In this document: one piece after another, positions 6,251-56,456 of the stretch
Layout: every line of letters starts with the position of its first letter
How positions within the stretch are numbered: the first letter of the stretch is position 1
IMG/VR virus record: IMGVR_UViG_3300020048_000114
Coordinates: 6,437 to 70,436 of that record
Direction: 5' to 3' (one strand)
DNA from: a virus
Lineage: Duplodnaviria; Caudoviricetes
DNA length: 64,000 nucleotides
Program-made: the position numbers and the translations under genes
The notes under the pieces: model-generated
The model's database searches: none
Seen by the model: the letters and a program-made list of their open reading frames with translations, nothing else
Told to the model about the DNA's origin: nothing

Positions 6251-8056
6251 TTATGGTTGTTTTTTCCATTCATATTTTAAATTCCCACAGTCCCAGATTC
6301 TATCATAACCATTGAGTTGCATGTTTTCCCATTCGGTTAAGTTTGGATCAAATGTTATAAGTTTTTTTGACAATTCCGATTTTCTAAAATTATATCGGTG
6401 TTTTAACTCATATGGGTTATTTGATTTGAAATACCAGTAATTAGGTGGAGACTGTTTTACTTTTGTAAATCCTATTTTATCATATAGCGCATTTAATCCA
6501 GAGTATCTTATGTCGGCAAATGTTGTTATTTTCGATGGATTATGGTTTTTTATGAAGTGTGATATGAATTTTCCAGCAATTCCGATCACAGATGTTTCTC
6601 CAACGCAGAATCTATACATTTCATATTCACCAACTGTTGGATTCTTTGTTCCAAGAGCAACTCTGGCTCCACCAAATGTCATAACCGAGACAAGGGTGTT
6701 GTTATAAAATGCTCCAAGCTTTATCGATGATTTATCCGATCCTTGGATGTGATTTTTGTTCAAAAAGTTAATACATTCTTTTGAGGGTATCTCTTTTATT
6801 ATACAATTTCTTGCGTATATGGGTTTTAAATCTCGCATTTTAAGTATGGATTTTAGTTTATTTTTTACTATTTCTTGGTTGTTAATCCATTCATTTTCGA
6901 AAATATGAATCAGTCTTATTCCAAGTTTTTCACATTCCAACGTTTTATTTAAGTGATATGATCTGTCTTTACCGCCCGATGATTCGGAATGCCAATAGAT
7001 TCCGTCAAATTCAATAGCAAGTTTTTTTGATGGAATATGGATGTCAAGTTCATATGGTGGAATTATTTGACGAGTTCCTTGTATAACTTCTTCCGATGTT
7101 AATGATTTTACATATTCAAATACTTCATTTTCGAGTTCGGATTTTGCTATTGGAAAACAAACTTTGCATCTTGGAATGTTTCCTGAATATAGATCGTCTT
7201 CAAATTGACTTTCACATTTATTACATTTGAATTTATATTTGTTATCGTGTTTTGATCCAATATAAGCCTCTCTATCAAACATCGGAGTGCATATACCATT
7301 CAATCTATCTCCATCAAACAACAGATTTACAAAGTTTTGTCTTAGTTTCAATTTGGATTTATTTTTATGCAATTCTGTCTGTGAAATATTTGTCACCCCA
7401 TATTTTTCATTCAATGAATTTAACATTTTTTCTCTATCTCTCAATGGTGTATCAACTCCATATCTTTCCAAGTTTGTCTTTTTAATTGTTTCTTTTACTT
7501 CATCCGATTGGGTTGCAAATTCAAATCCGTATTTGTCTTTAATTGATGATTTTATTTTTTCTGACGTTTCGATTGATGCAAATCCCTGTCCACCGAAGTT
7601 TTTTATTGCGGTTTCCAAACTTTTCTTTTTTATGTCCTCGTTTTGTTGAGCATATTCAACACCATATCTATCTAACATGGCTTTTCTAAATTTTTCGCCA
7701 TATTCTTCTGTTTTGGAATAATGATCGACTCCATATTTTTCCATGAAAATTGACTTCATTTTGTTTTTATGATCGTCGGTTTTTGTGTGACTATCAACTC
7801 CATATTTTGATATACAAGTTTTTTTAGCCAATTCAACTTTTTTAACATTAACTTCAATGTCGTTGGCAGCACATTTGGAACAACAATATTTTTGATTTCT
7901 ATATTTCCTATGTGAAAATTCAATCAGACACGTTTTACAATTTGATGTTGTAAACGACTCGTTTTTTCTTGAAACATCTCGGCATTTCATTGAACAATAA
8001 TGTTTATTTATTGTATCTGTTTGACAGACCTTACATTTGTTCATTGATTTCTCCAT
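6251..8056 (-). mobile_element. Hef-like endonuclease gene, copy 1 (Zn ribbons + KYGV repeats + Vsr-like nuclease + GNAT/Mom-like C-domain)
   Basis: CxxC...YCSxxC, KYGV repeats, LAIEFDGIYWHSE, LIHIFENEW, IYARNC, NHIQG, TFADIRYS, GYDRIWDCG. Confidence 0.8.
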
Positions 8057-8111
8057 ATAGTATTTTGTATTTGAATATAAATATAGACCAACAATACATT
8101 ATACGCATAAA

Positions 8112-8161: not shown

Positions 8162-11125
8162 TTAACCATTTGAGAATGCGGCACCTGTAGGCATAACATT
8201 GAAGTCGATGATAACAAATTCGGCAGTCTTTGTTGGTTGAATGTAGATTTGTCCGTAAAGGATATTTCTATCAACCAAGTCAGCTGTGTTATTGGAATCA
8301 TCCATGACGACCTTGAATGCATATAATCCTGATCTCTGTTGAACGGATTGTAAATATGGGTTCACCAAATTCAAGAATTTGTTTCTTGTGACACTTGTAT
8401 TTTGTTCAAATATAAGGTATTTCGATGAACTTGCAATGAACTTCTTCAACGAAATCAACAATCTTCTTACATTGATTCTGTCGAGGGCACTTGGCAATAC
8501 TTGTAGAGTCTTCTGACCCCATACGTTGATGCCTTGGCCTGGGAATGCTGCGATTGGGTTGACACGACCGACATACAAGGTGTCACGGTCTGCGTGGGTC
8601 AATCTGTCAACAACTTGAACAGCTGTTGGGATTCCACCACGATTCAAACCTGCCGGAGCGAACCATTCTGCACCAACTCTGTCGCTCGAAGCATATACAG
8701 CAGGGAGAACAACTGATGGTGGGACAGGAACGATCTTGTTTGTGTTTGTGTCGGTGATCTTTACCCAAGGGTAGTATGTAGCAGCGTAGTTTGTATCAAA
8801 CTGTTCTGCCTTCAATACAACACTGTCGATGGAGGCTGCACCGGCTGGAAGGTTTTGAACCAAATCCATGATGTAGAATACGTCTCCGCGAGTCTCACAC
8901 AATTCAACAGTTCTTGTTACCAAGTATGGGTTGTATGAGTAGTTAACACCAGGCAATACGATCAAGTTAATGTCGAATTCATCAGCGTTGCTCAAAGCGT
9001 TTAGGGCCTGTGAGTATGCGTATGAACCGAGGGATGTGTTGGTCGAACAATTCAAACCTTGTTGGTTTGTTGCGATGATGTCGTCTCCGATCAATACAGG
9101 AACAGAAGGAGATTGACCGTCGAATCCGCCTTGGAATCCAAGAACGAACTTACGTTTCTTAACACTTGTCTGTTCTGTCGATGGAACGAAGGTCGGAACC
9201 AATCCAGCGTCATTTTCCAAGTCGAATGCATCGTTACATGCACTTGAAGCATATCTTGGAATTGGAGCGAAGAACTGTTTGTTGTCCAATTCAGAACCCT
9301 TTGCCGAACCTTGTGGGTAGAGGGATGCCAATTCAGCATCGGCGGTGCCTGGTGCTGGTTGGAATACTACACCTGAAGCATACTTGCCTGGTTGTAGGCT
9401 GTATGTAGATGCGTTGGTGTATGTCATCTTGACGATCTTGCTCAATGTTGAGTAATCGCCACCGATTGGTGAAGCATATGCATCAAATCCGTATGGAACG
9501 GAATTTTCTGGATATGGAACGGTTGTCATTTCGATTCTGATGGTCCTGCTTTGGTTGACGTAATCGCCAAATTCAAGAATCTTTCCATTGTGATCGATGT
9601 ATGTGTATCTGTCACCGATTCTACGAGCAACGAAATCTGCCGAATCAGGATTCAAATTCAAGTTTGTGAATGACTCGACGTAAACAGGTTTTACATCGTT
9701 GTCGGAGTATTGACGAACGTTCAATGTGAAGGTTCCGTATCTGCTTCCAGGAACGGTTCCAGCCAACTTAACGTTGCTGATTTCAATCTTGTATTCTGTG
9801 TTTGCACTTGTTCCATCGGAAAGAGTGTGAACTTTGAACAGATTGTATTTTGTTTCAATTCCACCGTCTCTTGAGACGATTTGTGAATTGATCCAAGGTG
9901 TATAAGCGTTGGTCAAATCGAATGTGGAATCTCCAATATCAGGAGTGATACCATCTTCGAAATCGGTTGTGGTTGTTCCACCAGTCGAGATTTGAATCTT
10001 CCATGATCCACTTGCAATCATTTCTTCCAATACTTCGGAAGTTTTGTATTCGAAGTTCTTGTAAACATAAGCAACTTGTTTCTTTGTTGTTGCCGATACA
10101 GAAACGAATCCTGCATCTGGGTTTGTTCCGAAAACATTCTTCAAGTATGCTGGGCTTTGTGGATCGATTGAGAACGAATATGATCCGTAGCTCGAAGAAA
10201 CAACGGTGTTGGATTCGGTATCCAAGTGAGCTTCCTTCAATTCAATCGAATAGTTCGATGTTAATGAAGAGGTGGTCGATGGAGTCAATACAGAACCGGA
10301 GAATCCATATAGATTTTGTCCTGTGTCAAATGCGGTGTTTGCCAAAACTGCCAAAACAACTTCATTTTCTCCCGAACCTGTTACGATTTCACCACATGCA
10401 TCCAATGTTGGAAGACCTGCTGGTGTCCATGAGGACAAGTCAAACGATCCGTAGTCTCCTGTTACAGAACCGGAGATGTAATATACTGCGTTTCCACACA
10501 AGTTTTGTGAAGTAACCTTTCCGCTAACAGTGATCGAACCAATGTGTGCGATTTGTGGGTTCAATACAACAGCAGAAGACAATGTTCCGCTTACGAATGT
10601 CGAACCGGACATGTGAACTCCTATTAGAGAGCTTGAAATCGTTCCAACTTGAACCTGAGAACCGGAGTATAGACCTGTGTAGAATGTTCCGATCAAAGCA
10701 CCTTGCAACACATTGCTGCCCGATGTGAATGTTGCGTAAACAACTGAACCGCTGATTGATCCTGATTCTGTGAATCTATCATATTGGCCTGGGATAGCAC
10801 TGATGATAACTGGGTCTTTCTGTTGATATCCTGCCAATCCACCAACACGAACTACGGTCACAATGCCTTGTTCTTTCAAATACTGTTGAGCAGTAAAAGG
10901 AGCATATAGAGTTCCGTCAGGAGCACCGAAAATTGCTTCTAAGTCGCCTTGTGTGCGAACTGTTGTTGGTGTGAAACCAGGGCCTTTTGCGAATGGACCT
11001 ACGATTGCACCTCCGATTGCCTCGATACCTTGAGCGAGGAACGATTGATCGAGTTCACGGGTGAAAACACCTGCGGACACGATACGATTTGATGGGGTGA
11101 ATGTTCCCCCTTGTTGAATTGGCAT
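8162..11125 (-). CDS. Contractile tail sheath protein (T4 gp18-like)
   Basis: N-terminal IVSAGVFTRELDQS and AIVGPFAKGP. C-terminal YYPWV, WFAPAGLNRG, VWGQKTLQ..SALDRINVRRLL. Start refined to MPIQQ at 11125. Confidence 0.95.
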   Translation of the reverse strand: MPIQQGGTFTPSNRIVSAGVFTRELDQSFLAQGIEAIGGAIVGPFAKGPGFTPTTVRTQGDLEAIFGAPDGTLYAPFTAQQYLKEQGIVTVVRVGGLAGYQQKDPVIISAIPGQYDRFTESGSISGSVVYATFTSGSNVLQGALIGTFYTGLYSGSQVQVGTISSSLIGVHMSGSTFVSGTLSSAVVLNPQIAHIGSITVSGKVTSQNLCGNAVYYISGSVTGDYGSFDLSSWTPAGLPTLDACGEIVTGSGENEVVLAVLANTAFDTGQNLYGFSGSVLTPSTTSSLTSNYSIELKEAHLDTESNTVVSSSYGSYSFSIDPQSPAYLKNVFGTNPDAGFVSVSATTKKQVAYVYKNFEYKTSEVLEEMIASGSWKIQISTGGTTTTDFEDGITPDIGDSTFDLTNAYTPWINSQIVSRDGGIETKYNLFKVHTLSDGTSANTEYKIEISNVKLAGTVPGSRYGTFTLNVRQYSDNDVKPVYVESFTNLNLNPDSADFVARRIGDRYTYIDHNGKILEFGDYVNQSRTIRIEMTTVPYPENSVPYGFDAYASPIGGDYSTLSKIVKMTYTNASTYSLQPGKYASGVVFQPAPGTADAELASLYPQGSAKGSELDNKQFFAPIPRYASSACNDAFDLENDAGLVPTFVPSTEQTSVKKRKFVLGFQGGFDGQSPSVPVLIGDDIIATNQQGLNCSTNTSLGSYAYSQALNALSNADEFDINLIVLPGVNYSYNPYLVTRTVELCETRGDVFYIMDLVQNLPAGAASIDSVVLKAEQFDTNYAATYYPWVKITDTNTNKIVPVPPSVVLPAVYASSDRVGAEWFAPAGLNRGGIPTAVQVVDRLTHADRDTLYVGRVNPIAAFPGQGINVWGQKTLQVLPSALDRINVRRLLISLKKFIASSSKYLIFEQNTSVTRNKFLNLVNPYLQSVQQRSGLYAFKVVMDDSNNTADLVDRNILYGQIYIQPTKTAEFVIIDFNVMPTGAAFSNG

Positions 11126-11139
11126 GGCTTTATTTCCTT

Positions 11140-11832
11140 TTATGTTGTAATGCACGTATTGTGCAATTTGTTGATTGGTTTGTTATGATCTGTTTTTCTA
11201 TACACATCAATAAATTTTTTATCCGTTGAATTATATCTCCGAAATGCGGTTGGATTGAGAAAATTTATTATTTTATTTTCTCGTTGTTTATCCAGAATTT
11301 TTCTATTTGGTTTATTGTGATATTTACTGTCATATTCAATAACCACGTTTCTTTCCGAATCATATCCATCTAAATAAAACAAATCATTAAAAATTTTTAT
11401 TTGATGGTTTATCTCGAAGTTGAAACCTATTGAATTCCACTTATTTATCAATTCTATTTGCCCATGATCCGTTTTCACCTTTATCCACTTTGATCTATGT
11501 AATGCATTTATATGACGTTCTCTAACATCTGGTCTATGCATAGAAATTTTCACAATTTTTCCGGTCTTTAGTCTTTCATCATTGTTTAAATAACGATTTT
11601 TTTGCGAAATCGACATGTTATCTCTGATCGATTTTGATAATTTTTTTCCGATATGCGTTCCAACTTTTGAACATTTGTTGCATTTCATTGTGGATGCCAA
11701 TGATCTTCTTACACTTTCTCTGGTTCGTATAACTCTGACTTCTTTACATGATGGGCATATGAGTCCATGACCATTCTCAATAACCTTTACGGTTCCATTG
11801 ATGATTGCATTTTTGACTACATTTTCCCTCAT
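11140..11832 (-). mobile_element. Free-standing Vsr/DUF559-like (EDxHD-type) homing endonuclease with Zn ribbon and NUMOD3-like segment
   Basis: CPSC..CNKC, LSKSIRDNMSISQK, FYLDGYDSERNVVIEYDSKYH. Confidence 0.75.
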
Positions 11833-11854
11833 TAAATATAAGTATAAATAAAAA

Positions 11855-11900
11855 ATTCCAAAATCTTTTTAATTTTTTAAACACTTAAAGATTTTGGAAT
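11855..11900. terminator. 14-bp inverted repeat (terminator or operator) between the 94-aa gene and the endonuclease promoter
   Basis: attccaaaatcttt-18 nt-aaagattttggaat. Confidence 0.55.
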
Positions 11901-11906
11901 GTGTAT

Positions 11907-12191
11907 TTACTTCGTTTCTGTTGGTGTGAAGGTTCCGTCTTTCAATGAAAGATTTCCCTCACCATATTTTGATAGGATTGTGTCGATGTGATTTTTCTCT
12001 GCAATCTGCGTGTCCTCATACAATTTTGTTAGAACATCCTCTTTTTCTCTCAGAGAATCGACGGCTTTATTTAGATGAATTTTTTCCAGATGGAGTTCAC
12101 CAAATTTCATCAAAACTTGATTGTATGTTGCACTTATTTCTTTGAACTTTTGAAGTTCTTCGTCTGCTAATTTTACAGTTGTATTACTCAT
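11907..12191 (-). CDS. Small coiled-coil hypothetical protein
   Basis: 94-aa helical ORF preceded by a conserved TATATATA-type upstream motif. Confidence 0.65.
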   Translation of the reverse strand: MSNTTVKLADEELQKFKEISATYNQVLMKFGELHLEKIHLNKAVDSLREKEDVLTKLYEDTQIAEKNHIDTILSKYGEGNLSLKDGTFTPTETK

Positions 12192-12363
12192 ATATGTATA
12201 TATATGGAATATTTTACCAAAATCTTATATAATTACGGTATATCCTTTGGATTCTGCTATTGAAACATCACAATCTGCCGATCCTGGATTGTTTGAGAAA
12301 TCAAGAGTTGCATCACCCTCTAATATAGCATTCATTATTGAATTTAGGGCGTCTGCGTCAAAA

Positions 12364-12561
12364 TTACAATTGTTCATATTCTCTTGGGTTTGGTTCATAA
12401 TAAACTCCCTCATATGTTTTCCATTGTTGTCCCTTTACCGTGATTTTGTATTCATAGTATCTTCTTCCGAATAACGATCCTTGTGGTAATGCAACAAAAC
12501 CGTTTGGCTCCCCTTTAAAGGTGCCCTTTCGCATGGTGGTGTTATTGATTATCGGATTCAT
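12364..12561 (-). CDS. Small hypothetical protein
   Basis: 65-aa ORF whose start overlaps the gp15-like stop. Confidence 0.4.
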   Translation of the reverse strand: MNPIINNTTMRKGTFKGEPNGFVALPQGSLFGRRYYEYKITVKGQQWKTYEGVYYEPNPREYEQL

Positions 12562-19139: not shown

Positions 19140-20855
19140 TCAATTAAATGTCATTTCGTATTTAAGATTCCCACAATCCCAGATACGATCATAGTTATTG
19201 TTTAACATATTGTCATATTCATTTAATTTATCGTCATATACATTTAATTTTTTGGATAGGACGTTTTTTCTAAAAGAGAATCGATGCCATATGTTAATTG
19301 GGGATGATAACTTAAAATACCAGTAGTTTGGAGTGGTCATTCCAATTAACTTAAAACCGATTTTATCATACATAGAAGATAAACCACTGTATCTTATATC
19401 AGCATATGTGATTATCTTGAGAGGTTTTATGTTTTTTATAAAATGATTTAATAATTTGCTTGCTCCACCGATAACAGTTTTGGATGAACAATATCTGTAA
19501 AGTTCATATTCATTTGTTGACGGGCCCTTGTTTCCAAGAGCAACTCTCAGTGGACCAAACGACATAACAGAAACGATTTCTCCGTTGAATTTTAAACCAT
19601 AATATACGCTCGATTTGTCATTTCCTTGTATGTGGTAATTGTCCAAAAAGATCATTTTTTCTCGATTTGTTATTTCAACAATTTCACATTTTCTTGCATA
19701 TGTTTTATTTGATGAACCATTCATAATATTCAGTATTTTGTTTTTGACTATGTTTTGTTTGGTGATCCACTCATAATCCCAAATTTGAATTAGTTTTATT
19801 CCAAGTTTATCACACTCAATTGTTTTATCTATGTGATATGATCGGCTTCGTTTTCCAAATGACTCAGAATGCCATGATATTCCATTGCACTCTATAGCAA
19901 TTTTCTTTTTTGGAATATAAATATCCAACTCTTTACCGTTTAATATAGACCTGTCATTTTCAATTATTTCAACATTTATATTTGATTTTATAAATTCAAC
20001 AACTTGGAGTTCGAACTTGGAACGGTTTTGTGGAAAACAGTTGATACAAATTGGAATTTTTCCACTCTCCAAATTATCTTCAAATTCGTGACCACACTTA
20101 TTACATTTAAATTTATATTTTACAGATTTGCCGTCTTTTTTACCTCCAACATAATCATCAATTGTGAACAATGGAGAACAATTGTTATTTCTAATTGGAT
20201 TATTCAATAAATTGTTAAATGCTTCTGATAAAGTTTTTAATTTTAAATCGTTTTTTACACATGTCCGTTGTGCTGTAGATGTCACACCATATCTTTCGAG
20301 GTTCGTGCGTTTGGCTTTTTCTATAACCGTTTTACTTTTTGATGGTGTGTTTGACCCATATTTTTTGAAATTGGTTTCTCTTATTTTTTGTTTCACGACT
20401 TCATTTGCAAAAACGTTGTCACATTTATATTTTGATTGCACAGAGTTTTTTATTTTTTCAGATATTGATGGGGATGTGAATGAACACGTCGATCCATATT
20501 TATTCAAAAAAGTTTGTTCCCTTTTATTTTGTATTTCATCACTCTGGCTAGGATTTTCAACACCATACTTTTCCAACATTGTTTTTCTTGTCTTCTCCAT
20601 CCTGTTATTGACAAGTGTTTTATCCTTTTGGTGTTCAGAAGAACATTTTTTACAACAATATTTTCCATATCCAATCGGAAATCCATTAAACGGAGTGTCG
20701 TTAAAACAATTTGGACATTTCCTGTTAACCACCGGGTTGATTAGGTTGTATAACTCTTCGTTTGTTTTTTTGTGAAACATCATAAAGTGTCGAGACAACG
20801 ACAAATTATTTTTACAAACCTTTTCGCAAATTGGACATTTATATTGATCAATCAT
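19140..20855 (-). mobile_element. Hef-like endonuclease gene, copy 2
   Basis: C2H2 finger, KYGVENPSQ repeats, IAIECNGISWHSE, IQIWDYEW, YARKC, YADIRYS, YDRIWDCG. Confidence 0.8.
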
Positions 20856-20992: not shown

Positions 20993-21075
20993 GGTATATA
21001 AATATATCATAAAAACATAAAACGTCAAAATAAATTTGTTGGCTAAATATAATTAAGCAAATGAAATCCGCGTCA

Positions 21076-21083
21076 TATTTATA
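21076..21083 (+). promoter_or_regulatory. Representative copy of the recurrent TATTTATA putative late-promoter motif
   Basis: The same 8-mer lies 3-19 nt upstream of starts at 6210, 8056, 11832, 17186, 20992, 21087, 31399, 36748, 39738, 42362, 44977 and 59705. Confidence 0.65.
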
Positions 21084-22525: not shown

Positions 22526-22968
22526 AATACAAAGATTTTTACACAGACGAGTTAAACGAAGACCCAGAAGTTTTGATGGGTGAATACCCAAGATGGGACT
22601 ATGATAGTTATCTATTCATCGGAACGACGGATGGTAAAGGACTAATATACACATCCATAAAACAGAATCCGCACATGATCCACGGAAATCTTATGAGAGC
22701 TTTCGTTAAAAAAATTGATCAAAACGGAGTGGATGTTAAAACAATAGGAGATGTTGCGGATAAACAATTTTCATTTGATCTATCCGGCGCAGTTATACCA
22801 AAACAAACTGGAATAGAAAAAACCCTGATATCCTTATGGGATAAACAGGGCTTGATACTAAAACCAATTCTTAGAGATTTGTTGATTAAGATAGGTGTTT
22901 CCGGTGCAGCCTCGTTGGAGGTTGCGGATAGAAATGACAAAGACAATTCACAGACGCAAGATTTTTAA
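22522..22968 (+). CDS. Hypothetical protein with a MKYKDFYTDELNE leader
   Basis: ATGA-coupled to the upstream gene; leader nearly identical to that of the 21728 gene. Confidence 0.65.
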   Translation: MKYKDFYTDELNEDPEVLMGEYPRWDYDSYLFIGTTDGKGLIYTSIKQNPHMIHGNLMRAFVKKIDQNGVDVKTIGDVADKQFSFDLSGAVIPKQTGIEKTLISLWDKQGLILKPILRDLLIKIGVSGAASLEVADRNDKDNSQTQDF

Positions 22969-23651
22969 TTGGTCTTGGACGTTGGGATCAACCACAATCC
23001 GTTCGAGAAAATCTTTTCTTTCAAGAGAGGGTAAAGTTCAAAAATTTTCAAGGATTCAAGCGTATTGTGTTTGAACATCTTGAATAATTCTTCCCTCGTT
23101 CTCTCCGAACTGACATTATCCAACATATTGATGAATTTTGGATTGTGAAGAATTCTATGAATTGGCATGGAGATTCCAAAATCCTTCGTAACGGAAAATC
23201 TAACAGCTCTGAGGAGACGGAGTGAATCCTCTCGCATTCTGTCTTCCGTTTCTCCGACGCATCGAATAACTTTGTTTTTGATGTCTTCCTGTCCATTGAA
23301 TGGATCGATTAGATTTCCGTCATCATCTTGAGCAATTGCGTTGCAGGTAAAATCCCGGCGCGACAAGTCATCAAACAACGTTCCATTTTCAACAGAATCG
23401 GGCCGACGACCATCGGAATATGCGCCTTCTTTACGACACATTACGAAATCAACTCCGCCGAGGATGTTATCAACCGCACGAATTGTGAAGAATTCAGGTT
23501 TTTCAACCTTGATGTCACAACCACGGGATTGAATAGCTTCCTTCATTTCGTTATACGATCCAGCCTCAACCGAGAAATCAATATCCTTCGATTCGATTCC
23601 CATGATCAAATCACGAACAGCTCCTCCTACACGATAAAATTTTGCGTTCAT
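22965..23651 (-). CDS. tRNA nucleotidyltransferase (CCA-adding/poly(A) polymerase family), compact form
   Basis: VGGAVRD..MG..SKDIDF, DLSRRDFTCNAIA, EDSLRLLRAVRF, VSSERTREE. Start refined to 23651. Confidence 0.9.
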   Translation of the reverse strand: MNAKFYRVGGAVRDLIMGIESKDIDFSVEAGSYNEMKEAIQSRGCDIKVEKPEFFTIRAVDNILGGVDFVMCRKEGAYSDGRRPDSVENGTLFDDLSRRDFTCNAIAQDDDGNLIDPFNGQEDIKNKVIRCVGETEDRMREDSLRLLRAVRFSVTKDFGISMPIHRILHNPKFINMLDNVSSERTREELFKMFKHNTLESLKIFELYPLLKEKIFSNGLWLIPTSKTN

Positions 23652-23694
23652 ATTTAGGAGAGTGGACCACAAGAAACAATAAGTCAATAAATTT

Positions 23695-25371
23695 TTGATC
23701 GATCGGTTTTATTTGGTATATTTACCATATATGACACCAGTTACAAATAAATTAGTTATCTCAGAAGAAGAGTCAAAAATATGTAAAATCGATGGAAAGA
23801 AATTTAGTTCATCTCGTAAGATGGTGTGGCACGTTAGAAAAACACATAAATTGTCATTTGAGGAATATATTATAAAATATTACTATGGCGGAAACCGACC
23901 GGTATGTTTGAAAACAGGAAATTTTCTTTCATTCAAAGGAAATAAACTTGGTCCTTGGTTCACCGATTATTCAAAAAACAATTTCCCAAGAAAACATCAC
24001 ACAGAAGAGACAAAAAATAAAATTAAAGATGGGTGTGAAAAGACATCAATGGAGAAATATGGTGTGAAAAATGTATTTTTATCCGATTGGTGTAAGGAGA
24101 AGTCAAAGACAACGATTGTTGAACGATATGGTGTTGATAACATAATGAAACTCGATGAATATAAAAAATTCATCCCAAGAACAACTGAATCATTACAAAA
24201 GGCAAAAGAAACAAATCTTAAAAAATATGGATCACCAACATACACATCGACAATTGAATGGAAACAAAAACTGAGAGAACTATCATTTATTAAATATTAT
24301 GATAATTGGGAAAATTATTTAAAGTCTTTATCCGATAGAAAAATTGATTGTGTCCACGGTTCAATATCTGATATGAAGAATAAGAATCCTATTTCTTATA
24401 AATGTCAGATTGATGGGTTTGAATGGGTAGAAACAGATTTGTTGCAACCAATTTGTCCAAAATGTTTGGAAACTGGAAATCTATCAAATAGATCAAAGAT
24501 GGAAACTGAGATGTGTTCATGGTTGAAGTCTATAAACATTGATTTTAAAATGAATAATCGGTTTAAAACAGAAACAGGAACATATGAGATAGATTTCTAT
24601 ATACCAAATAAAAACATCGGTATAGAATTAAATGGAAACTATTATCATTCACAGAATGGTGGCGGAAAGAATCGCAAATATCATATAGACAAATTAAATT
24701 CAATAAACTCAATTGGAATAGAATTGATACAAATATTCGAAGATGAGTGGATAAAGAAATTTCAAATAATAAAAGACAAGTTATTATCAAAGTTGGATAG
24801 AGGATCGTTCAAATCAATATACGCAAGAAATTGTAAGGTCATCAATATAGAAAATAATATAGCAAATGATTTTCATGAATTGAATCATATACAAGGAAAA
24901 TCAAATTCAACCATTCATTTTGGTTTGTTTGATGGAGATTTGATGGTTTCCGTTATGAGTTTTTCTGGTCTTAGACCTTCTCTCGGAAACAAAAAGATAA
25001 AAGGACATTATGAATTGGTTAGATACTCATCATTATTAAATCATTCCATCATTGGCGGTTTTTCCAAATTAATATCACATTTCATAAAAAGAAATAATCC
25101 GGTAAAGATAATAACATATGCTGACAGACGGTATTCCGGATTAAAAAACAACGTATATGAAAAGACAGGATTCAAATTCGTTGACATTGGTTCTCCGAAT
25201 TATTGGTATGTCAAAAAATTAGACAGAAAACATAGGTTTAATTTCACCAAATCAAAATTGGTAAAGGATGGATTTGATTCTAACAAAACCGAATGGGATA
25301 TCATGAAATCCCGTGGATGGGATAGGATTTGGGATTGTGGTCACTTAAAATATGAGATGTTGATTCATTGA
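23695..25371 (+). mobile_element. Hef-like endonuclease gene, copy 3 (probable start ATG 23731)
   Basis: C..DG..H..H finger, KYGV repeats, IGIELNGNYYHSQ, IQIFEDEW, YADRRYS, GWDRIWDCGHLKYE. Confidence 0.8.
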
Positions 25372-25455
25372 AATAAAAAAACCCGACTCGAAAAAGTCGG
25401 GGTTTTTGTCGGACACTCTAACCTAAGTCCTTAAACTTGATCGAGATCCCCGATT
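25368..25455. repeat. Direct-repeat copy 1: bidirectional terminator plus an orphan copy of the major capsid gene 3' end
   Basis: Matches 27221-27307. The minus strand encodes IGDLDQV*. Confidence 0.9.
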
Positions 25456-25577
25456 TTCGTGAAAAACTATTTGTAAAAAATGAAAGAAGTATAGCTAAAG
25501 CGGTTAAAAATGGGATCAATTCTCTGTCTGTCATAGAAAAAGATTGAACCAATAAAAAACAGAAGTCAAAATTTTAA

Positions 25578-27224
25578 TTGTTGTTCATTGTTACAAATAA
25601 TTTCGTTTATCCAGACTTCTATCGATATGTATTATGGATGAAACGAAAAGTGAATAAGATAGTTTGTAAAATTTGTAACAATGAGTATTCAACCGTTGGG
25701 TTTTTTGGTCATTTAAGAGACACACACCAAACCTCTCCGGATGAATATGTTAAACAACATGGAGAGTATAGAACAAAGGTTTTATCTTTAAAAAATTATG
25801 AATCCGCAGATTCAAATTTCGAGTGTCTGTTGGATGGAAAAAAATTCAAATCGGAGAGGATGTTATCTGGCCACATCAAGAGAAATTTCAACATGTCTAA
25901 GAACGAATACGTCAAAAATGTTGTTTTTAAGGATGGTATTCCAAAATGTAAGTGTGGATGTGGAGATGATGTGGGTATAATAAAACAATATCCATATAAA
26001 AGAGAATACATTTCTGGACACAATTCTGTCGGTGAAACCAATCCGATGTATGGTAAAACTCACAGCGTTGATGCGATTAACACCATGATAGAAAAGGCAA
26101 ATTCGCGGGTGGAATTATACAGAGAAAATAAATGTCCTCTCCCTATGCATTCAAAAGAATCTTTGATTAAACGTGGATTGATCTATTCAAATAAAATGAT
26201 GAATTTGAAACAAATAAAATACAACGTTGAAATATTGGAGAGGAATGGTGATTTTCTAAGATTTAAGTGCTTGAAATGCAATAAAGAACATTCTCAATAT
26301 CATACATCATATTTCACTTGCTCAAATTGTTATCCACCCATTAAATCAAAAGGCGAAAACGACTTGAAATCTTCTATTGAAACAACATTTAACATTGAGT
26401 GTGTGCAGAATTATAGAAAGCTTTTTAATGGAACAATGGAATGTGATATTTTCATTCCGTCGAAAAATATAGGAATAGAATATAACGGAATATACTATCA
26501 CTCGGAATTTTCTGGAAATAAACATAAAAATTACCACATAGATAAGACAAACAGTTTTCTTAACAAGGGGGTTAAAATACTGCACGTTTTCGAGGATGAA
26601 TGGTTGAATAAAAGAGATATAATTTTATCAAGAATAGGTTCTTACATAGGAAAATACGGAAGTAAACACCACGCCAGAGAGTGTGTAATAAAAGAAGTTT
26701 CTATAAATGATTCACGAGATTTTTTAACAAAGAACCACTTACAGGGTAGTGACAAACATCAAATTTCATATGGACTATACAAAGATGGTTGTTTATTATC
26801 CATAATGACATTCTCAAAATTAAATATATCAAAGGGATCAATTCACATAGATGGTCATTATGAACTTAGTAGATTCTGTAATTTATTGAACACGTCGATC
26901 TCAGGGGCATTTAGCAAACTACTTAAACACTTTATAAAAAACAACACATTTGAAAAATTGATAACTTATGCAGATATGAGATGGTCGGATCAAACAAAAA
27001 ATGTTTACATTATCAACGGATTTAATTTTGTGTCCAAATCAAGTCCAAATTATTTTTACACAAAGGATCACAAGAATAGATTGAACAGATTTGGATTCAG
27101 GAAATCGGAATTGATTAAATCAGGTGGCGATCCATCAAAAACAGAAATTCAAATAATGAGGGAAATGGGATATGATAGAATATGGGATTGTGGACATTTA
27201 AAATATGAATTGTTAACTCGTTGA
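25578..27224 (+). mobile_element. Hef-like endonuclease gene, copy 4 (probable start ATG 25638)
   Basis: C2H2 fingers, CKCGCG...YISGHN, IGIEYNGIYYHSE, LHVFEDEW, YADMRWS, GYDRIWDCGHLKYE. Confidence 0.8.
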
Positions 27225-27307
27225 AATAAAAAACCCCAACCGAAAGGTTGGGGTTTTTGTTTGGTCAATCTAACCTAAGTCCTTAGACTTGATCGAGATC
27301 GCCGATT
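27221..27307. repeat. Direct-repeat copy 2: bidirectional terminator plus the active major capsid gene 3' end
   Basis: aaaaaccccaacc-gaaa-ggttggggttttt hairpin, then tctaacctaagtccttagacttgatcgagatcgccgatt. Confidence 0.9.
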
Positions 27308-28884
27308 ATTATTTTCCCATAGAACTCAGGTCTTACTAATTTCTTAGCATATCTTGTCATAACACCACGTCTTGGGGTGAAGTTAACAGGATCATAAACC
27401 AGAGGAGTCTGGATCAGAGGAATGTATGGAGCGTAAACAGCACCGGTTTCGAGGAAGTTATTTCCACGGAAACCTACCAAGATGACGTTATCGGTCATGT
27501 ATGGGTTCTTGTAAACTGTCCAACGGTTCGATAGCGAACCAACCTTCGAAACACCCATTGCGAACTTAGCAGAATCACCGTCGGTGTTTGCTGTGAAGCC
27601 AGGGATGGATTCAAGGATTGTTGCTACGTCTGGCGAAACAACGAGGAAGTTAGCACCACCACGAAGAGTCAACTGGTGAATCTTGTTGGAAACCTTCTGA
27701 ATCTTGTTACCAAGAGTCTGGAACCATGTGCTCTTAACATAAGCGGTTCTGTTTGTAGCAGAATCATCAAATGTCTGTGTGTTGTAGTTGTATTCCTTGC
27801 CGATTGCTGCGGACCAGTATTCGGTTGTTACCGCTGGTGCGCCAGTTACCAACATGTCCAAGATTTCGAGGTCCAATTCCATCGAAACGTATTCAGACAA
27901 CATTGCTGTCAGTTCTGCTTCTGCGTCGATAGAGTGGTATGCGTTCAAGTCTTGTGCCAATTCTGGGGTCCAGACGGCCTTCAACTTACGTGTCTTAGCG
28001 ACAATTGGTTCAGATTTCAAGTCCAAGTTGATTTCTGGGATACCAATGTCTGCGTTCAATCCTTGTGGAGCGATTGCGACACCCTTGTCTTCAAAGTCAC
28101 CACGGGAGGTGTCTGTTGGCTGAACGAAGTATGCAACTCCAACTGTTGCTGGAACAGCGGAAGCGGATACGATGAACTGAACGTTTGTTCCTACAACCTT
28201 TGTGAAGGCTGGATAGAAATCAACGATGCCTGAACCGGATACTGTGAATCCACGAACACCGAGGGCGTCGTAAGATGGAAGGGATGCTACTGGAACAAGA
28301 ACCTTCTTAACTTCGTTTGCTGCGACAGATGCGGAGAGGGCTTCTACGAAATTAACGTCGAATGAAGAACCCGATGCGCCAGTTACGGAAACAGCAGATG
28401 CGGTTACGTTATTGATTGTATAACCAAAACGTCCTTGTCCATAGAGACCGTTTACTGCAGCATCTGTAGAACCGTTCTTGACACCAGTTCCACCGAACAA
28501 TGAAGTTCCGTTGAACTGTGGTTTTCCTGCTTGGTTTGATCCATACTTGAAGTCCAAGTAGAAGATCAGGCCGGAAGGAAGGTTCATTGGCTGAACCGAG
28601 ACGAATTCCTTAGCTGCGATTTCTGCGAAAACACGACGAACCAATGGAAGAGCAACTCCAGCCCATTGTTCTGAGTTTGCGGAGGTGCCTGTTCTTGTTG
28701 CTTCTTCGATCAATTGCTTAGCCTGATTCTCCAAGAGAATGGACATGTGCGACTTGTCGGTGTCGGAACCAACTCCTTCAAGGAGTCCGGTTTTATTCCA
28801 CTTGTTAACCAACTGGCGTGTTTCAGCCATTAGCTTTGCTTGTGGGTTGAATGTATCTGTGAGTAATGATTTTACTGCTGACAT
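27283..28884 (-). CDS. Major capsid protein (T4 gp23-like)
   Basis: KWNKTGLLEG, ILLENQAK, LPLVRRVF, VSVQPMNLPSGLIFYLD, AKTRKLKAVWTPELAQDLNAYH, YAPYIPL, GVMTRY. Confidence 0.97.
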   Translation of the reverse strand: MSAVKSLLTDTFNPQAKLMAETRQLVNKWNKTGLLEGVGSDTDKSHMSILLENQAKQLIEEATRTGTSANSEQWAGVALPLVRRVFAEIAAKEFVSVQPMNLPSGLIFYLDFKYGSNQAGKPQFNGTSLFGGTGVKNGSTDAAVNGLYGQGRFGYTINNVTASAVSVTGASGSSFDVNFVEALSASVAANEVKKVLVPVASLPSYDALGVRGFTVSGSGIVDFYPAFTKVVGTNVQFIVSASAVPATVGVAYFVQPTDTSRGDFEDKGVAIAPQGLNADIGIPEINLDLKSEPIVAKTRKLKAVWTPELAQDLNAYHSIDAEAELTAMLSEYVSMELDLEILDMLVTGAPAVTTEYWSAAIGKEYNYNTQTFDDSATNRTAYVKSTWFQTLGNKIQKVSNKIHQLTLRGGANFLVVSPDVATILESIPGFTANTDGDSAKFAMGVSKVGSLSNRWTVYKNPYMTDNVILVGFRGNNFLETGAVYAPYIPLIQTPLVYDPVNFTPRRGVMTRYAKKLVRPEFYGKIIIGDLDQV

Positions 28885-28940
28885 AATGTTATATTATTGA
28901 TTGTTTTTTGGTTTTCCTAACTCTATAGTATTATAATCTA

Positions 28941-30185
28941 TTACAATACTTGCTTTTTGATTCCGGCTAACTTTTGGAATCTATTTGCCATCTCAGTTCC
29001 TTCGGTGATTACCTCTTTTGTAGGTTTTGTGGAAGCAACTGTTTTCGAAGCTAAACCTTCGGTGATGGTCTTAACTGCAACCTTCTGTGAAGGAGCGGCG
29101 GACTTTGCACCAAAATTAATCGATTCAGCGATAGTAGAATATACAAGTTTGACTTCACGAGTGTTCTTCGCTAGGTCCATGCTTTCTACGATCTTTAGTT
29201 TTTGTGGGTTACTCAAATTTCCTGCCTTGAATAGCTTGTTTGTGTAAAGCAACTTGGCGTTGAGTAAATTGACTTCATTCAACTTGCCCTTAACAAATGT
29301 TAGAGCTTCGTTGAATTGTGATAGTTGTTTCTTGAGTGTTTCGTTCTCAAGTTGGAGAGCTTCCATATCAGGTTGGGTCTGTTGGATTGGTGCGACCTGT
29401 GGTGCAACTCCCTCAGCCTCTGCTGTAATCTCTGCCATCAACTCATCAAAATTGATTGTTTCTTCCGAATCAACTGGAGCAACTCCAGCTTGTGGTGCGG
29501 TTGCGGGTGCAACTGCTGGAAGACCGTTTTCGGAAACTACTTCCTTTTCGTCTTCGTCTTCTTCGGCACCCTTTTCAAGTTCTTCCTTGATAGAGTCCAA
29601 TTCTTTTTCGTCTTCTGTCTCTTCCCCTTCGGATAGACCTACGGTTCCGTCATTGTATTGATCTTTGAATTGGCCAGTCTTTCCCAATGGGTCTTCTGTC
29701 TTTTCCCCAGCCTGTGGTTTAGAAGGATCGGAAGGTGCGGAAGTCTTCAATGTTGGAGTGTTTCCAATCACTGTGTATTTCACTTTTTCGCCTTGTGGGT
29801 CTTCTGTTTCTTGTAGAGCTGATGCTGTTGGATCAACAACTGGAGGAAGTGCGTCGATAGGTGCTGGAGCAGAAGGAACGGATGGAGCAGGTGGAACGGA
29901 TGGAGCAGATGGAACGGATGGAGCAGATGGGATACCTGTGTCAACTGGAAGAGTTGGATCAACCGAGATATCCGCTTCAGTAGCAAGACCGTCGATTTCT
30001 GTTACCGGATCTTCCAATGAGAATTCTTCTTCATCTTGAAGTTCGTTTTTCAACTTCTCAGAAAGAGCACCTGTTACGGCTTCTGTGAAGTGTTCTTGAA
30101 GAGCAAGCTTGGCATTGGCAAGAGCTGTTGCTCTTACTGCCTTTGCATCTGCGATTGCTTCTTTTAGTAGATTTGATTGTGACAT
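28941..30185 (-). CDS. Prohead core/scaffold protein
   Basis: Immediately upstream of MCP. LLKEAIADAKAVR N-terminus, acidic/Pro-rich middle, coiled-coil EVNLLNAKLLYTNKLF, C-terminal RFQKLAGI. Confidence 0.8.
   Translation of the reverse strand: MSQSNLLKEAIADAKAVRATALANAKLALQEHFTEAVTGALSEKLKNELQDEEEFSLEDPVTEIDGLATEADISVDPTLPVDTGIPSAPSVPSAPSVPPAPSVPSAPAPIDALPPVVDPTASALQETEDPQGEKVKYTVIGNTPTLKTSAPSDPSKPQAGEKTEDPLGKTGQFKDQYNDGTVGLSEGEETEDEKELDSIKEELEKGAEEDEDEKEVVSENGLPAVAPATAPQAGVAPVDSEETINFDELMAEITAEAEGVAPQVAPIQQTQPDMEALQLENETLKKQLSQFNEALTFVKGKLNEVNLLNAKLLYTNKLFKAGNLSNPQKLKIVESMDLAKNTREVKLVYSTIAESINFGAKSAAPSQKVAVKTITEGLASKTVASTKPTKEVITEGTEMANRFQKLAGIKKQVL
29865..29930. repeat. 18-nt coding tandem repeat (~3.7 copies) encoding PSAPSV
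   Basis: Unit tggagcagatggaacgga with 1-nt variants. Confidence 0.85.
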
Positions 30186-30332
30186 ATATTATGACCTTTA
30201 TTTTTTGTTTCTCTGTGTAAGCATTAATCGCCAACAATACAGTTTGTATATACTTGCCACAAATAAAGGTTGTCGCATTTTTATATAAATATGTATATAT
30301 TTTATAAAACGTAAAAAATTTTCTATTTATTT

Positions 30333-39789: not shown

Positions 39790-41262
39790 TTATCGTATTA
39801 GCCATGTTAAATCCTCTGATCGGTTTCCGATTTGGATGTTCCAGGGGTCTTTTGCGGGCATGTTTGCCGTTCTATAAACTCCACCAAATCCTTGTGGAGG
39901 TGTTCCATTTTCGCCGTTTGCGGTTGAACTTCCTATACCATTCAACATAGCCTTATTGAGTTCAATTGATTGAGTTCTGAGGCGTAGAGCTGTGTCACGA
40001 ATCCATAGGGCGGTTCCGTAAGACATTACAATATCGTCATTATATCCACTTGCGGCCTCTGCCTTTGATCCTTTCCAAATGAAAGTTTTTAACTGCTCTA
40101 TCAATCTTGTGGAATTTATCTTTGCCTCTTTTTGGTGCATCGACAATTCAAACTTTGAAATAATAAGCGGCCTCGACTTTCCACTCATTGTGAATCCAGG
40201 AACCATTCGTTTTTCTTGAGCACCTATTTTGTTCGTCATCTGTGCGTCAACATCCACATATAATAATTCAGATGAAGTGTAAAATAGATTTTCATATCCC
40301 AAGTCTATTACCTCTTGAAGGGTTGCCCACCCAATATTTGCGTTTTCTATAACCAACAAAGCTGAATTGTATTCGGTGGCAACCGCAACCAAAAATCTGC
40401 CATATTCCTTTGTTGACATTTTACCTTCATATTCAGCCACCTGTTCCAACGTCTCCAAATCTAATATATGAAACGCATTGAAGTCGGTTCCGTCGCCACG
40501 AGCAACGTCTGCCACAACCATATATGATCTATTAGACAGTGCGTATTCCCAAATCCAAAATTCTTGGCCAGCACGTCTCTTTTCAATTGGGTCTTTTGTC
40601 AGCCTCTCATAATATGAAATGTCTTCTGCCTTGATCACGGTGTTACCCGATGATGAAAAATCCGTGTCGCATTCCTGGGCGGATTGTCTGACTCCTAGAT
40701 TTTTTGTCTGTTCATCTCTCCAAGTCTGGTCTCTCTCCGGGTGTAGATTCCATTTTAGTCGAATCGTGTTGAACCCGTTTTTTCCAGCATCTGCATCAAC
40801 CCATGTTTTGTGAAACCAATTTCCACTGCCGTTCGGCGTCGAGAGGACCACACATTGTCCGCCTGTGCTAAGGGTTGGCTGTGCAGCCATCCAGATATCT
40901 TCTGCGTATTCCATGAACGCACAATTGCTTGATAAGATGCCATCTGTGTAATATCTCGATTTTTTTTCAACACTCAGCGCGTCATACAGTTTTATTTTTT
41001 TATTTACTTTTCTATTACTTTTAACAGAAATAACCCCCACATCCGATTCGATTAACGTGCCTCTTTTTGCATCCTTTGCATATATGAATGAATCTGAAGA
41101 TGTTGCCCCCAATTTATGATTCTCTGAACACTTTAATACAACTCCGTTGGAAAATTTAATTTGTCTATAACTTTCCTTTTCCACACATGAAACCCCAACA
41201 AAATCACTCCACCCATCGGGGGTTAATATCTCGAAATTATTTATTTGTTTGTTGTCTTTCAT
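39790..41262 (-). CDS. terL: Terminase large subunit, C-terminal part, fused to a 113-aa C-intein (IntC 40924-41262)
   Basis: IntC has CSENH and ends LYDALSVEKKSRYYTDGILSSN|CAF. It is followed by LSTPNG, ADVARGDG.D, LVIENANIG, NDDIVMS. Confidence 0.92.
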   Translation of the reverse strand: MKDNKQINNFEILTPDGWSDFVGVSCVEKESYRQIKFSNGVVLKCSENHKLGATSSDSFIYAKDAKRGTLIESDVGVISVKSNRKVNKKIKLYDALSVEKKSRYYTDGILSSNCAFMEYAEDIWMAAQPTLSTGGQCVVLSTPNGSGNWFHKTWVDADAGKNGFNTIRLKWNLHPERDQTWRDEQTKNLGVRQSAQECDTDFSSSGNTVIKAEDISYYERLTKDPIEKRRAGQEFWIWEYALSNRSYMVVADVARGDGTDFNAFHILDLETLEQVAEYEGKMSTKEYGRFLVAVATEYNSALLVIENANIGWATLQEVIDLGYENLFYTSSELLYVDVDAQMTNKIGAQEKRMVPGFTMSGKSRPLIISKFELSMHQKEAKINSTRLIEQLKTFIWKGSKAEAASGYNDDIVMSYGTALWIRDTALRLRTQSIELNKAMLNGIGSSTANGENGTPPQGFGGVYRTANMPAKDPWNIQIGNRSEDLTWLIR

Positions 41263-42362
41263 TTCAGCTTTTTAATTGTGTTTTCCAAGTATGGATGATT
41301 TGATAAATCTATTCGGTTAACATTTGATTTTATCCAATCCTCATCAATGCAGATATAATCATAATTATTTTTCTTACACCAATCCATTGCAGATAATTCT
41401 TTTAATGAATTATCAATTTTCAACTTTAAACTTTTTGGTTTGATTTCAAATATCTTTTTATTTTTTACATCATGAAAATCAACAATGTATATTTTGTCAT
41501 TTCCTGCGTGGTCTATATATGGTATCCGAATGTCCTCATATGTTGTATGTTGATTTAATACCCAAAATATAGCTTCCCACCAACTTCTAAATTTTTTGAT
41601 TTCTCCAGATTCCAATTTTATATATGATTTCCATCGAGTCCAAGAATTTGTTATACAAGGTGTGAATGAACCATCCAATATTTTTTTCTTCATTAATATC
41701 GATAATTTTTTTGAGGCTTCTTCATATGAACATTTGTATTTCTCGTGTAAGTTTCCAGATTTCCAAGTTTCTTTATTTGTGTCACTTATTCGTTTTTTTG
41801 TGTCGGCACTATGCCAGGGTTTACCATTCAAACCAATCTTTCGGTTATTTATTCGTTTCTGTATAGTTTCGTTTGATATTCTAGATGATGCGTCAGATAT
41901 TTGTTTTTTTATTTTTTCACATTTTTCTTTTTCGTAAAGTTCAAATATAGATTTCCCTCTAATTTCAGATCCTCTTTTTTTTGAAGATTTTATCAGTTCT
42001 ATGCATGATCGTTTTTTATCTTCATCCGACATATTTTTGTATCGCATGTCCATCATTTTTTTTGTGTGTTTTGATTTGCACTCAAATGAGTTACAATGTT
42101 TTGATAGGTTAACTTTGTATGGATTAAATTTTAATATATTTTTATTACAGTGTGGACATAACATTGGTTCGGATAAATTATTTTCTATATAGAATATTCT
42201 CTCTCTGATGGATGTATCTGGAACAAGAAATGATGTGTCCGACAAAATCATGTCATATATATGAATTAAATTGTGTTTTATATACCAATCTTTTTTACAT
42301 GATTTGTGTATAAGTTTTTTATCAACAAAAACATTTGACATGATTTTTTCTCTATTTTCCAT
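41259..42362 (-). mobile_element. Free-standing TnsA-like PD-(D/E)XK homing endonuclease between the terminase halves
   Basis: CPHC..CNSFEC, NUMOD3-like HSADTKKRIS, FRSWWE...YEDIRIPY...YIVDF...IFEIKP. Its stop overlaps the IntC ATG. Confidence 0.78.
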
Positions 42363-42387
42363 ATAACTTCTATATAGTCTATAAATA

Positions 42388-54819: not shown

Positions 54820-56304
54820 TTATATTTTTGACCATAACCATTTAAAATTTCCACAATCCCAAATTCTATCATAACCGTTATTTTTCATATTATCCCATTC
54901 TGATAGAATTTCATCAAATTTGGACAATCTCCCAGAGAGTTTGTGTTTTTGAAAATTCATTCTCCCCAGTCTGTGTTTATAATCTTTTTCTATATAGTAA
55001 TAATTGGGCGGGGTGATGTTATTTAAAGAAAACCCAAGTTTCCCATAAATTTCTCCTGTGAAGAATCTTCTATCCGAGTATGATATTATTGTATTTGGTG
55101 AATATTTTTTTACAAAATATGAGAACATTTTACTTGCTCCTCCATGTATTTTATGTCCAAGTTTGTTGCAAAATCTGAACATTTCATACTGGACATTTTT
55201 ATCGAACCTGGAAGAACCAAACGTCATAACGGAAACGAGTTCTTCATTGTGGTATAAACCAATTTTAATAGATGATTTGTCATCTCCTTGTATGTGGTTT
55301 GTCTCCAAAAATTTGTTCTTTTCGGTTGATCCAATTTCTTTTACTATACAATCTCGACCATTAAGTTTAATTTTGAAAACTCCAAATTGGTTGGCCAATA
55401 TTGACTTTACAATATCTTGTTTGTGGACCCATTCATCTTCAAATAAATGTATCAATTTTATTCCATGAAAAGCACACGACTTTGTTTTATTCAAATGATA
55501 CATTTTGTCTTTGTTATTCGCATTTTCTGCGTGCCAGTATAATCCGTTGTGTTCAATTGCAATTTTTTTATCTTTAACGTAGAAATCCAACTCCTTTCCA
55601 ACCAACACTGTTCTATCGGAGATTTTTATTGTTTCGGTTGGGATCAATGTTGATAAAAAATCATATATTTGTTGTTCAACTATGTTTTTTCCTGTTGGAT
55701 TGCATGTTGGGCAAAAAATCGTTTTGTGGTTGTATATTGTTGTTTCGAATTTGTTGTCGCAACACATACATTGGAATAGATATTTGTTTTCCCATGTGTA
55801 TCCGACATAATCTTTCCGATCAAACAGTGGAATCAGTTTTCTTTCTTTACTAACAAATAGTATATTATCGTAATTATTGTTTGATAACGTTGATCGTATT
55901 TTTTCTTTTATATCGATTCTTTTGCATGGATTATCAACGCCATAATTTTTTATGAAAGTTTCCTTCATCTTTTCGATGTTATTATATTTCACATCACCAT
56001 ATCTTTCCAATTTGGTTGCGTTAACTTTATCCATTAAATCTTTATTGGATAAGGCATTTTCAACTCCATATTTCTCCAACATAGATTTTTTGAAATTTGA
56101 TTTTGTTGCATCTGTTGTCATTGGATGACCACCGTATTTTTTTTGGAACGTGTCTTTTTGTTTTTTAATCATCCCCTCTTTAATAACAGGGTCTTGATTC
56201 TTGCAACTTTTGGAACAGTATATTCTTTTTCTAGTTCTCTCTTGATTCGGAACGAAAAATTCTTTATTGCATGTTTTACATGTTTTGGATATTAGATTTG
56301 ACAT
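54820..56304 (-). mobile_element. Hef-like endonuclease gene, copy 5
   Basis: CKTC...YCSKSC, KYGV repeats, IAIEHNGLYWHAE, LIHLFEDEW, YSDRRFF, GYDRIWDCG. Confidence 0.8.
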
Positions 56305-56456
56305 TGTTTTGGTTTGAATGGTGTGTATTAATTAGTAATTATAGAGTGGTTATTAAAAAATGTCAATAATAATTGTTATATTCTTTTATTTATTATAAAT
56401 AACACATATAAATCAGTGTTATATCAAAAATATAAACCCTTAAATAACACAATATT

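Follow-up and report, generated by a model that had tools for sequence, protein, structure and literature searches.

In this study, we focus on the region behind the major capsid protein (MCP) gene of an uncultured T4-like phage, in a window of 64 kb taken out of a 70.4-kb linear viral contig of IMG/VR (record IMGVR_UViG_3300020048_000114; completeness estimate 22%). Two genes for Hef-like homing endonucleases lie there in tandem, and the end of the capsid gene is present twice together with its terminator, once in its proper place and once as an orphan between the two endonuclease genes. We consider that this feature is real and most likely a natural example of one-sided homing, by which two nuclease genes were stacked and a capsid-gene end was left stranded. 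Such a scar shows how a single site can accumulate selfish nuclease genes, and how these can carry the ends of essential genes from one phage to another.

The MCP gene belongs to the T4 gp23 family (27283..28884, minus strand, 533 aa; Pfam PF07068 Gp23, E 1.8e-76). Convergent with it, two homing endonuclease genes (HEGs) follow each other on the plus strand; they are two of the six Hef-like paralogues of the contig and are termed here copy 3 (23695..25371, likely ATG at 23728) and copy 4 (25578..27224, likely ATG at 25638). Both are members of the Hef-like family by sequence (phrog_3339, 'homing endonuclease', E 3e-99 for copy 3 and 3e-89 for copy 4), with Pfam matches to DUF7487 and REase MTES_1575 in copy 3 and further Pfam matches in copy 4, the REase MTES_1575 matches being weak in the two copies. 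Their open frames of 548-558 aa retain every one of the 53 columns found invariant in 7 members of the family. Read from the capsid gene, the order is MCP body with tail B, terminator B, copy 4, a spacer, then orphan tail A with terminator A, which the stop of copy 3 directly adjoins. The spacer is an AT-rich stretch of 182 nt, assigned to neither strand, that runs from the orphan tail to the likely ATG of copy 4 (25456..25637). Its G+C content is 27.5%, compared with 30-31% in copies 3 and 4 (30% in copy 3), 36% in the window and 46% in the MCP gene.

Copy 4 is flanked by direct repeats of 84 nt (25372-25455, repeat copy A, the orphan) and 83 nt (27225-27307, repeat copy B, in use), both read on the minus strand. 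Each consists of the last 7 MCP codons, the stop, an identical 14-nt spacer and a G+C-rich two-way hairpin flanked by A and T runs. In copy A, hairpin A occupies 25382-25401 and the dead tail, IGDLDQV*, 25431-25454; in copy B, hairpin B occupies 27234-27253 and the true last 7 codons and stop 27283-27306. On the minus strand, both tails read ATC GG(G/C) GAT CTC GAT CAA GT(T/C) TAA, and over the 39 nt at the MCP end 37 are identical, the two differences (GGG/GGC and GTT/GTC) being synonymous. The segments 25376-25455 and 27228-27307 align without a gap at 81% identity, and 25315-25387 and 27168-27240, at an offset of 1 nt, at 82%. A chance match is ruled out, since none of 100 shuffled 24-mers matched and the flank-to-flank local alignment scored 62.5, whereas 200 shuffles gave 12 at most. 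Both strands can form the hairpins (-18.7 and -23.5 kcal/mol in the MCP sense, -14.8 and -24.5 in the HEG sense), and in the alignment the stems of A and B differ by one compensatory A:T/G:C pair and by a paired T/A insertion, so that each terminator evolved under selection in its own lineage. The original prediction, made from the sequence of the window, had described direct repeats with two-way terminators and IGDLDQV* around copy 4, two synonymous differences in the last 39 nt and a compensatory stem change, and folds and alignments bear it out on all of these. It had, however, drawn the repeat as ~88 nt from 25368 and 27221; the repeat is real, but the similarity on the HEG side beyond 25372 and 27225 is protein motif conservation. 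Indeed, we rejected the similarity of the HEG 3' ends (25315-25371 and 27168-27224) as part of the repeat because it corresponds to the conserved IWDCGHLKYE motif, copies 3 and 4 being 68% identical over their last ~57 nt, compared with 61-77% in other paralogue pairs. Similarity further out thus being motif conservation, the informative repeat is 25372-25455 / 27225-27307.

Repeat copy A was proposed to be what remains of an earlier MCP 3' end, native terminator included, and two observations back this. A TAG stands in the orphan frame 5 codons upstream of the tail, which makes the orphan a dead, non-coding remnant, and the succession of MCP stop, ~25-35 nt of spacer and terminator hairpin is constant in ~190 related loci, so that a native MCP 3' end is present in full in each repeat copy. 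Moreover, the repeat copies are far closer to each other than to the untranslated region (UTR) of any relative, and they therefore come from two closely related phages. The HEGs themselves tell of a much older separation. Copies 3 and 4 are 47% identical at the aa level, over the C-terminal 293 aa only; their N-terminal DNA-binding regions differ, copy 4 having ROS/MucR-like zinc fingers and NUMOD3, and third-codon identity is 20-55% along the whole alignment, that is, saturated. By this measure the two genes are anciently diverged, whereas the repeat is young. Saturated third positions in the HEGs set against a repeat at 81% (37/39 in its distal part) imply that the repeat derives from two related genomes and not from the duplication of one cassette.

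The sole novel joint is 25455/25456, at the left edge of the 182-nt spacer, with at most AAT common to both sides. As this joint lies between orphan tail and spacer, the locus is symmetrical as to which cassette came in. The tail ends A and B differ at 2/24 coding nt and ~19% overall, and either may be the native one (the closest MCP relative is at 82% aa identity). The spacer has no match in any fetched relative. From it, through the orphan tail but in another frame, runs a 44-aa frame on the minus strand (25418-25552; 38 aa from ATG) with a hydrophobic stretch, LIPFLTALAILLSFF, which may be the truncated start of a gene once behind copy 4, or noise.

Endonuclease genes behind the capsid gene of relatives

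The MCP of the window is 76-82% identical at the aa level to those of its best uncultured relatives, and the nearest cultured phages are Flavobacterium phages of the 'immuto' group, at ~68% nt identity over the MCP gene. Out of the ~190 loci fetched via the MCP, 100 distinct ones with at least 2 kb downstream of the gene were surveyed. A GIY-YIG or Hef-like gene is found within 2 kb of the MCP gene in 40 of them and in none of the other 60. In 26 of the 40, it is a co-directional SegD-like GIY-YIG gene, in 10 a co-directional Hef-like gene and in 3 a convergent GIY-YIG gene, while one locus has both kinds. The MCP 3' flank is a landing pad for HEGs, and among these relatives the Hef-like family shows presence/absence polymorphism at this site. 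In locus L219, the MCP gene, its terminator and a convergent Hef-like HEG, whose stop adjoins the hairpin, follow each other in what is presumed, from this layout, to be the single-HEG state of the window type. L013 (9605-11300) and L027 differ by the clean 1.4-kb presence or absence of a co-directional Hef-like gene, ~100 nt past the MCP stop, with flanks that are 95-98% identical and no orphan. HEG insertion at the site is therefore normally scar-free.

The one locus with both kinds of HEG, L047, carries an orphan as well. On this contig, shared with L091 and L163, the MCP end, a GIY-YIG/NUMOD3 HEG and the orphan region occupy 9785-10860, and the order is MCP gene, terminator, GIY-YIG/NUMOD3 HEG (9913-10671), orphan MCP end (~10689-10724) with its own, different terminator, and Hef-like HEG (10855-12519). 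Its MCP is 63% identical to that of the window and the sample is unrelated, and on this comparison L047 is a second, independent scar. Read in frame, the orphan is (C)KVLVADLDQV*, and all its differences from the live end are synonymous. The idea that both orphans start at the same codon was rejected by the in-frame comparison, as the L047 orphan reaches to about codon -10/-11. A pattern from its orphan UTR, used to look for the empty site, matched its own contig only. The L047 joint comes after a ATATTTATAT motif, which in relatives precedes the gene that follows the GIY-YIG gene. As a separate observation, the next gene in relatives, whether it follows the MCP terminator or the GIY-YIG gene, starts with MIKLK... 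behind this motif (e.g., L056:9441-9480, L170:3793-3850).

Orphans were searched for in each locus with its own last 24 MCP nt, allowing up to 4 mismatches, a scan that would miss shorter or more diverged ones. They were found in both loci with two HEGs (the window and L047) and in none of the 39 with a single HEG (exact test ~0.001, by our own arithmetic). This tie to double occupancy is expected if a resident HEG removes the right-hand homology. The original prediction had an incoming element stacked onto a resident paralogue behind the MCP gene: the stacking is supported, as the HEGs are too diverged for local duplication and L047 has the same design, but copies 3 and 4 are symmetrical as the incomer.

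The capsid gene also shows a boundary at its end. We followed divergence along pairs of relatives (loci L001-L221) that had been picked solely on identity at -453..-244 from the MCP stop. Divergence is 0.02-0.05 up to -64, 0.12-0.14 in the last 60 nt of the gene and ~0.25 just past the stop, and at third positions of the MCP tail it reaches 0.27-0.38, against ~0.11 before. On these profiles, MCP tail and UTR clearly have a history different from that of the gene body, and the break in relatedness at ~-60 marks what would be a recombination boundary, where the orphans begin. This break agrees with the reported location of nuclease genes at the limits of genetic exchange between phages (PMC10448857). 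It also matters for the use of capsid genes as phylogenetic or diversity markers, since the last ~60 nt have a history unlike that of the rest of the gene. That tail divergence tracks HEG presence was considered and rejected, pairs of HEG-less loci showing an equal tail excess. Elsewhere in the MCP genes, a second divergence peak is seen at about -543..-484.

One-sided repair and its alternatives

The explanation that we favour, with somewhat better than even confidence, is that two related phages had different HEGs at one site, and that a break at the MCP end was repaired with one-sided homology, stacking both cassettes. The starting point would be two closely related T4-like phages, each with an MCP gene, a two-way terminator and a convergent Hef-like HEG, the HEG being copy 3 in one and copy 4 in the other. 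During mixed infection, one of the genomes would have suffered a break in its MCP gene ~7 codons before the stop, probably made by a homing endonuclease aimed at the conserved MCP end. The MCP-side end would then have been repaired by copying from the other genome the MCP end, the terminator, the HEG and ~180 nt beyond. The other broken end, carrying MCP tail, terminator and resident HEG, would have had no matching sequence beyond that point, and the far end would have been joined without homology, at most via the 3 nt AAT. The product would be an intact MCP gene with one terminator, both HEGs, and the other genome's last 7 codons and terminator stranded between them, a dead copy that would still terminate copy 3. 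The endonuclease-made break, its position and the one-sided route are what we infer from the product, and so would be any choice of the resident cassette. One may speculate that a genome with both HEGs would presumably resist both enzymes.

Several points weigh against this explanation. No relative was found that is close enough to represent the zero- or one-element state of the window's lineage: MCP searches of viral and metagenome contigs returned nothing above 82% aa identity, an exact-pattern search with the MCP tail and the 14-nt spacer had no match elsewhere, and a search with copy 4 gave one distant locus only, with no second genome having a copy 4-like cassette. The original prediction had proposed to compare MCP-downstream regions in relatives for zero, one or two elements; the 100 loci do provide all three states (60 without, 39 with a single HEG and 1 double), but such a series could not be built for the window's lineage because of this want of close relatives. 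Moreover, the break in the MCP gene could have a cause other than an endonuclease, the two joints are near but unequal (codon -7 in the window, about codon -10/-11 in L047), and the AAT at the joint is only a candidate microhomology. Just two orphan-bearing loci underlie the association of orphans with double occupancy, and the share of short orphans may be inflated merely by recombination, through which long repeats would be lost. Finally, the pairs in the divergence profile are not phylogenetically independent, and the contig is a metagenome assembly.

The anatomy would also be fitted, point for point, by an established, self-contained mobile cassette (MCP tail B, terminator B, copy 4 and spacer) for which codon -7 of intact MCP genes is a regular homing site, in essence the model of the original prediction. 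Its endonuclease would cut at this codon, the MCP body would be the left arm and the orphan tail with its terminator the right arm, and its own recoded tail would keep the capsid functional and uncuttable, in the manner of the gene hybrids formed by mobile endonuclease ORFs (mORFs) in fungal mitochondria (PMC3630166). Live tail and orphan do differ at synonymous sites only, in the window as in L047, and the third positions of the MCP tail are in excess of divergence across the clade. Yet two differences in 24 nt are weak evidence for recoding, the right arm would measure only ~84 nt, no second genome was found with the cassette or with anything near copy 4, and the absence of orphans from all 39 single-HEG relatives points to clean insertion downstream of the terminator as the usual mode, so that we regard such a cassette as unlikely. 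An endonuclease may not have been involved at all, if co-infecting genomes underwent illegitimate recombination and the longer MCP duplications, being unstable or harmful, were lost. T4-type phages recombine readily and the unequal joints agree with this, but both independent joints fall within the last 36 nt of genes of 1.6-1.8 kb, and HEG pairs are found at both, at a site where HEGs are densely clustered and relatedness breaks sharply at ~-60; we judge this explanation quite improbable.

We give very little credit to the tandem duplication of a single unit of HEG, terminator and MCP tail, with HEGs that afterwards diverged or were partly replaced, even though the start-to-start spacing is regular (1852-1853 nt), copy 4 has no closer paralogue in the contig than copy 3 (48% identity, against 37-40% for the others), and HEG-dependent tandem amplification of the SegB/T6 kind is documented (PMC13096335). 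Indeed, the N-terminal halves of the HEGs are unrelated and their third positions saturated, the 20-55% identity there rejecting a recent tandem duplication of copies 3 and 4, while the orphan, although non-coding, retains 95% identity over 39 nt, and a remnant free of constraint must be at least as old as the genes duplicated alongside it. A chimera of two strains, having copy 3 behind the MCP gene in one and copy 4 in the other, is always conceivable for a metagenome contig. Here the joint 25455/25456 lies at the edge of the repeat and not inside it, and it could not arise from a strain switch within shared sequence. Exact runs common to both halves do not exceed 17 nt, which is shorter than usual assembly k-mers, and an analogous structure occurs in an unrelated sample (L047), all of which leaves a chimera hardly credible.

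Under one-sided repair, the scar marks, to within a few codons, the probable break in the MCP gene. It thus offers a target site, open to testing, for two endonuclease families as yet uncharacterised, whose genes stand beside the most conserved phage gene in 40% of the relatives. A more tentative proposal, which we think doubtful, would go beyond this. The last ~20 codons of gp23-type genes may be the shared target of the SegD-like GIY-YIG and Hef-like enzymes, cassettes with a respelled capsid end may be mobile units, the phage counterpart of the mitochondrial mORFs, and the excess synonymous divergence of the tail may reflect a DNA-level arms race. If this is true, these codons become a concrete candidate for the target of T4 SegD. 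No new class of mobile element is revealed by the window, and its main value lies in pointing to the last ~20 MCP codons as an endonuclease target that can be tested.

Other endonuclease genes and features of the window

Hef-like enzymes are free-standing homing endonucleases that include Hef of the T4-related phage U5 and are multicopy in Campylobacter phages. By tblastn, we obtained matches to Campylobacter phages CP30A and NCTC12673 and to Bacillus phage AR9, in genes that carry the annotation Hef-like. The four further Hef-like paralogues of the contig lie at 6251-8056, 19140-20855 and 54820-56304 on the minus strand and at 57059-58789 on the plus strand, and they are 37-40% identical to copy 4. 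No flanking repeats above shuffled controls were found at these four copies, nor at the endonuclease gene of the terminase region (41259-42362), so that among the six HEGs flanking repeats occur only at copy 4. The frame of copy 6 does not end as usual behind the IWDCG motif but continues and overlaps the following open reading frame (ORF), at 58683-59189. At the 3' end of copy 4, the 63 nt at 27138-27200, which encode YDRIWDCGHLKYE, have 87% DNA identity with Hef-like genes of the Bacillus phages AR9 and PBS1, a striking conservation across very distant phages.

The left neighbour of the HEG pair, in the same orientation as the MCP gene, is a nucleotidyltransferase gene (22965..23687, minus strand) with a PolyA_pol head domain of the CCA-adding type (Pfam PF01743, E 2.7e-25). 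The window is also enriched in TATTTATA, with 21 matches against 4.8 expected (e.g., 8076-8083, 20997-21004, 21076-21083, 30284-30291, 42380-42387 and 56394-56401). Several of these 21 sites lie within ~100 nt upstream of ORF starts, and this placement suggests a promoter motif. The motif is absent from 23000-29000, hence there is no copy of it at HEG copies 3 and 4.

Comparison with known systems

The locus had been likened to integrative elements that regenerate their target gene. This likeness fails on the defining feature: there is no recombinase domain between the repeats, where copy 4 is the only gene, and the repeats are 81% identical gene ends and not an exact att-like core. The segmental amplification driven by SegB in phage T6 (PMC13096335) would share with the window a HEG-dependent rearrangement, head-to-tail units that contain a HEG and joints at microhomology. 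In T6, however, identical units are amplified under selection, whereas the HEGs of the window are ancient paralogues and no near-identical HEG-containing units are found in it, so that the SegB mechanism does not fit.

In T4 itself, segD is an antisense gene placed between genes 23 and 24; terminators flank it, no promoter can be recognised, and the SegD target is listed as unknown (PMC2988022). Copies 3 and 4 are placed in much the same way, directly behind a gp23-type gene, antisense, adjoining a terminator and without TATTTATA. HEGs of different families also replace each other at one site among the seg, mob and hef genes of T4-type phages, but in the examples given the cassette occupies intergenic space and no duplication is mentioned (PMC2988022), whereas the window has two stacked HEGs and an orphan target end. 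In a literature search that was incomplete, we found no phage paper on a duplicated capsid-gene end beside a HEG.

Outside phages, the closest parallel comes from fungal mitochondria, in which mORFs bring a replacement 3' end for a gene and strand the native one (Allomyces atp6; Glomus atp6, atp9, cox2 and nad3; PMC3630166). As in these hybrids, an endonuclease gene lies in the window between an in-frame replacement 3' end and a stranded, unexpressed native 3' end. The differences are that the host is a phage, that the nuclease is Vsr-like/Hef-like and not LAGLIDADG or GIY-YIG, and that the HEG is on the opposite strand. Furthermore, only 7 codons are duplicated here, with two synonymous differences, and the native terminator with them, while the mORF ends are longer C-termini at 64-81% identity. 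The recurrence of the window cassette at the same position in other genomes, as in the repeated homing of mORFs, was not found, L047 having a HEG of another family and another joint.

The process that comes nearest was described in T4, where the repair of an endonuclease-initiated double-strand break with homology on one side only has been called 'one-sided homing', and where breaks undergo illegitimate repair at microhomologies (PMC2988022, citing Parker et al. 1999). The window would have the same one-sided donor homology, the same far joint at little or no homology and the same gain of a mobile gene without a matching right flank. The T4 cases are engineered td-intron constructs made in the laboratory, whereas the window would be a natural product, with free-standing Hef-like HEGs and a capsid target, in which the resident HEG would be the cause of the missing homology and the route is read back from the outcome. 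The suggestion of an undescribed mobility mode is thus not supported: one-sided repair as known from T4 (PMC2988022), together with the mORFs of mitochondria (PMC3630166), suffices, and neither an integrase-like nor a new mode of mobility is needed.

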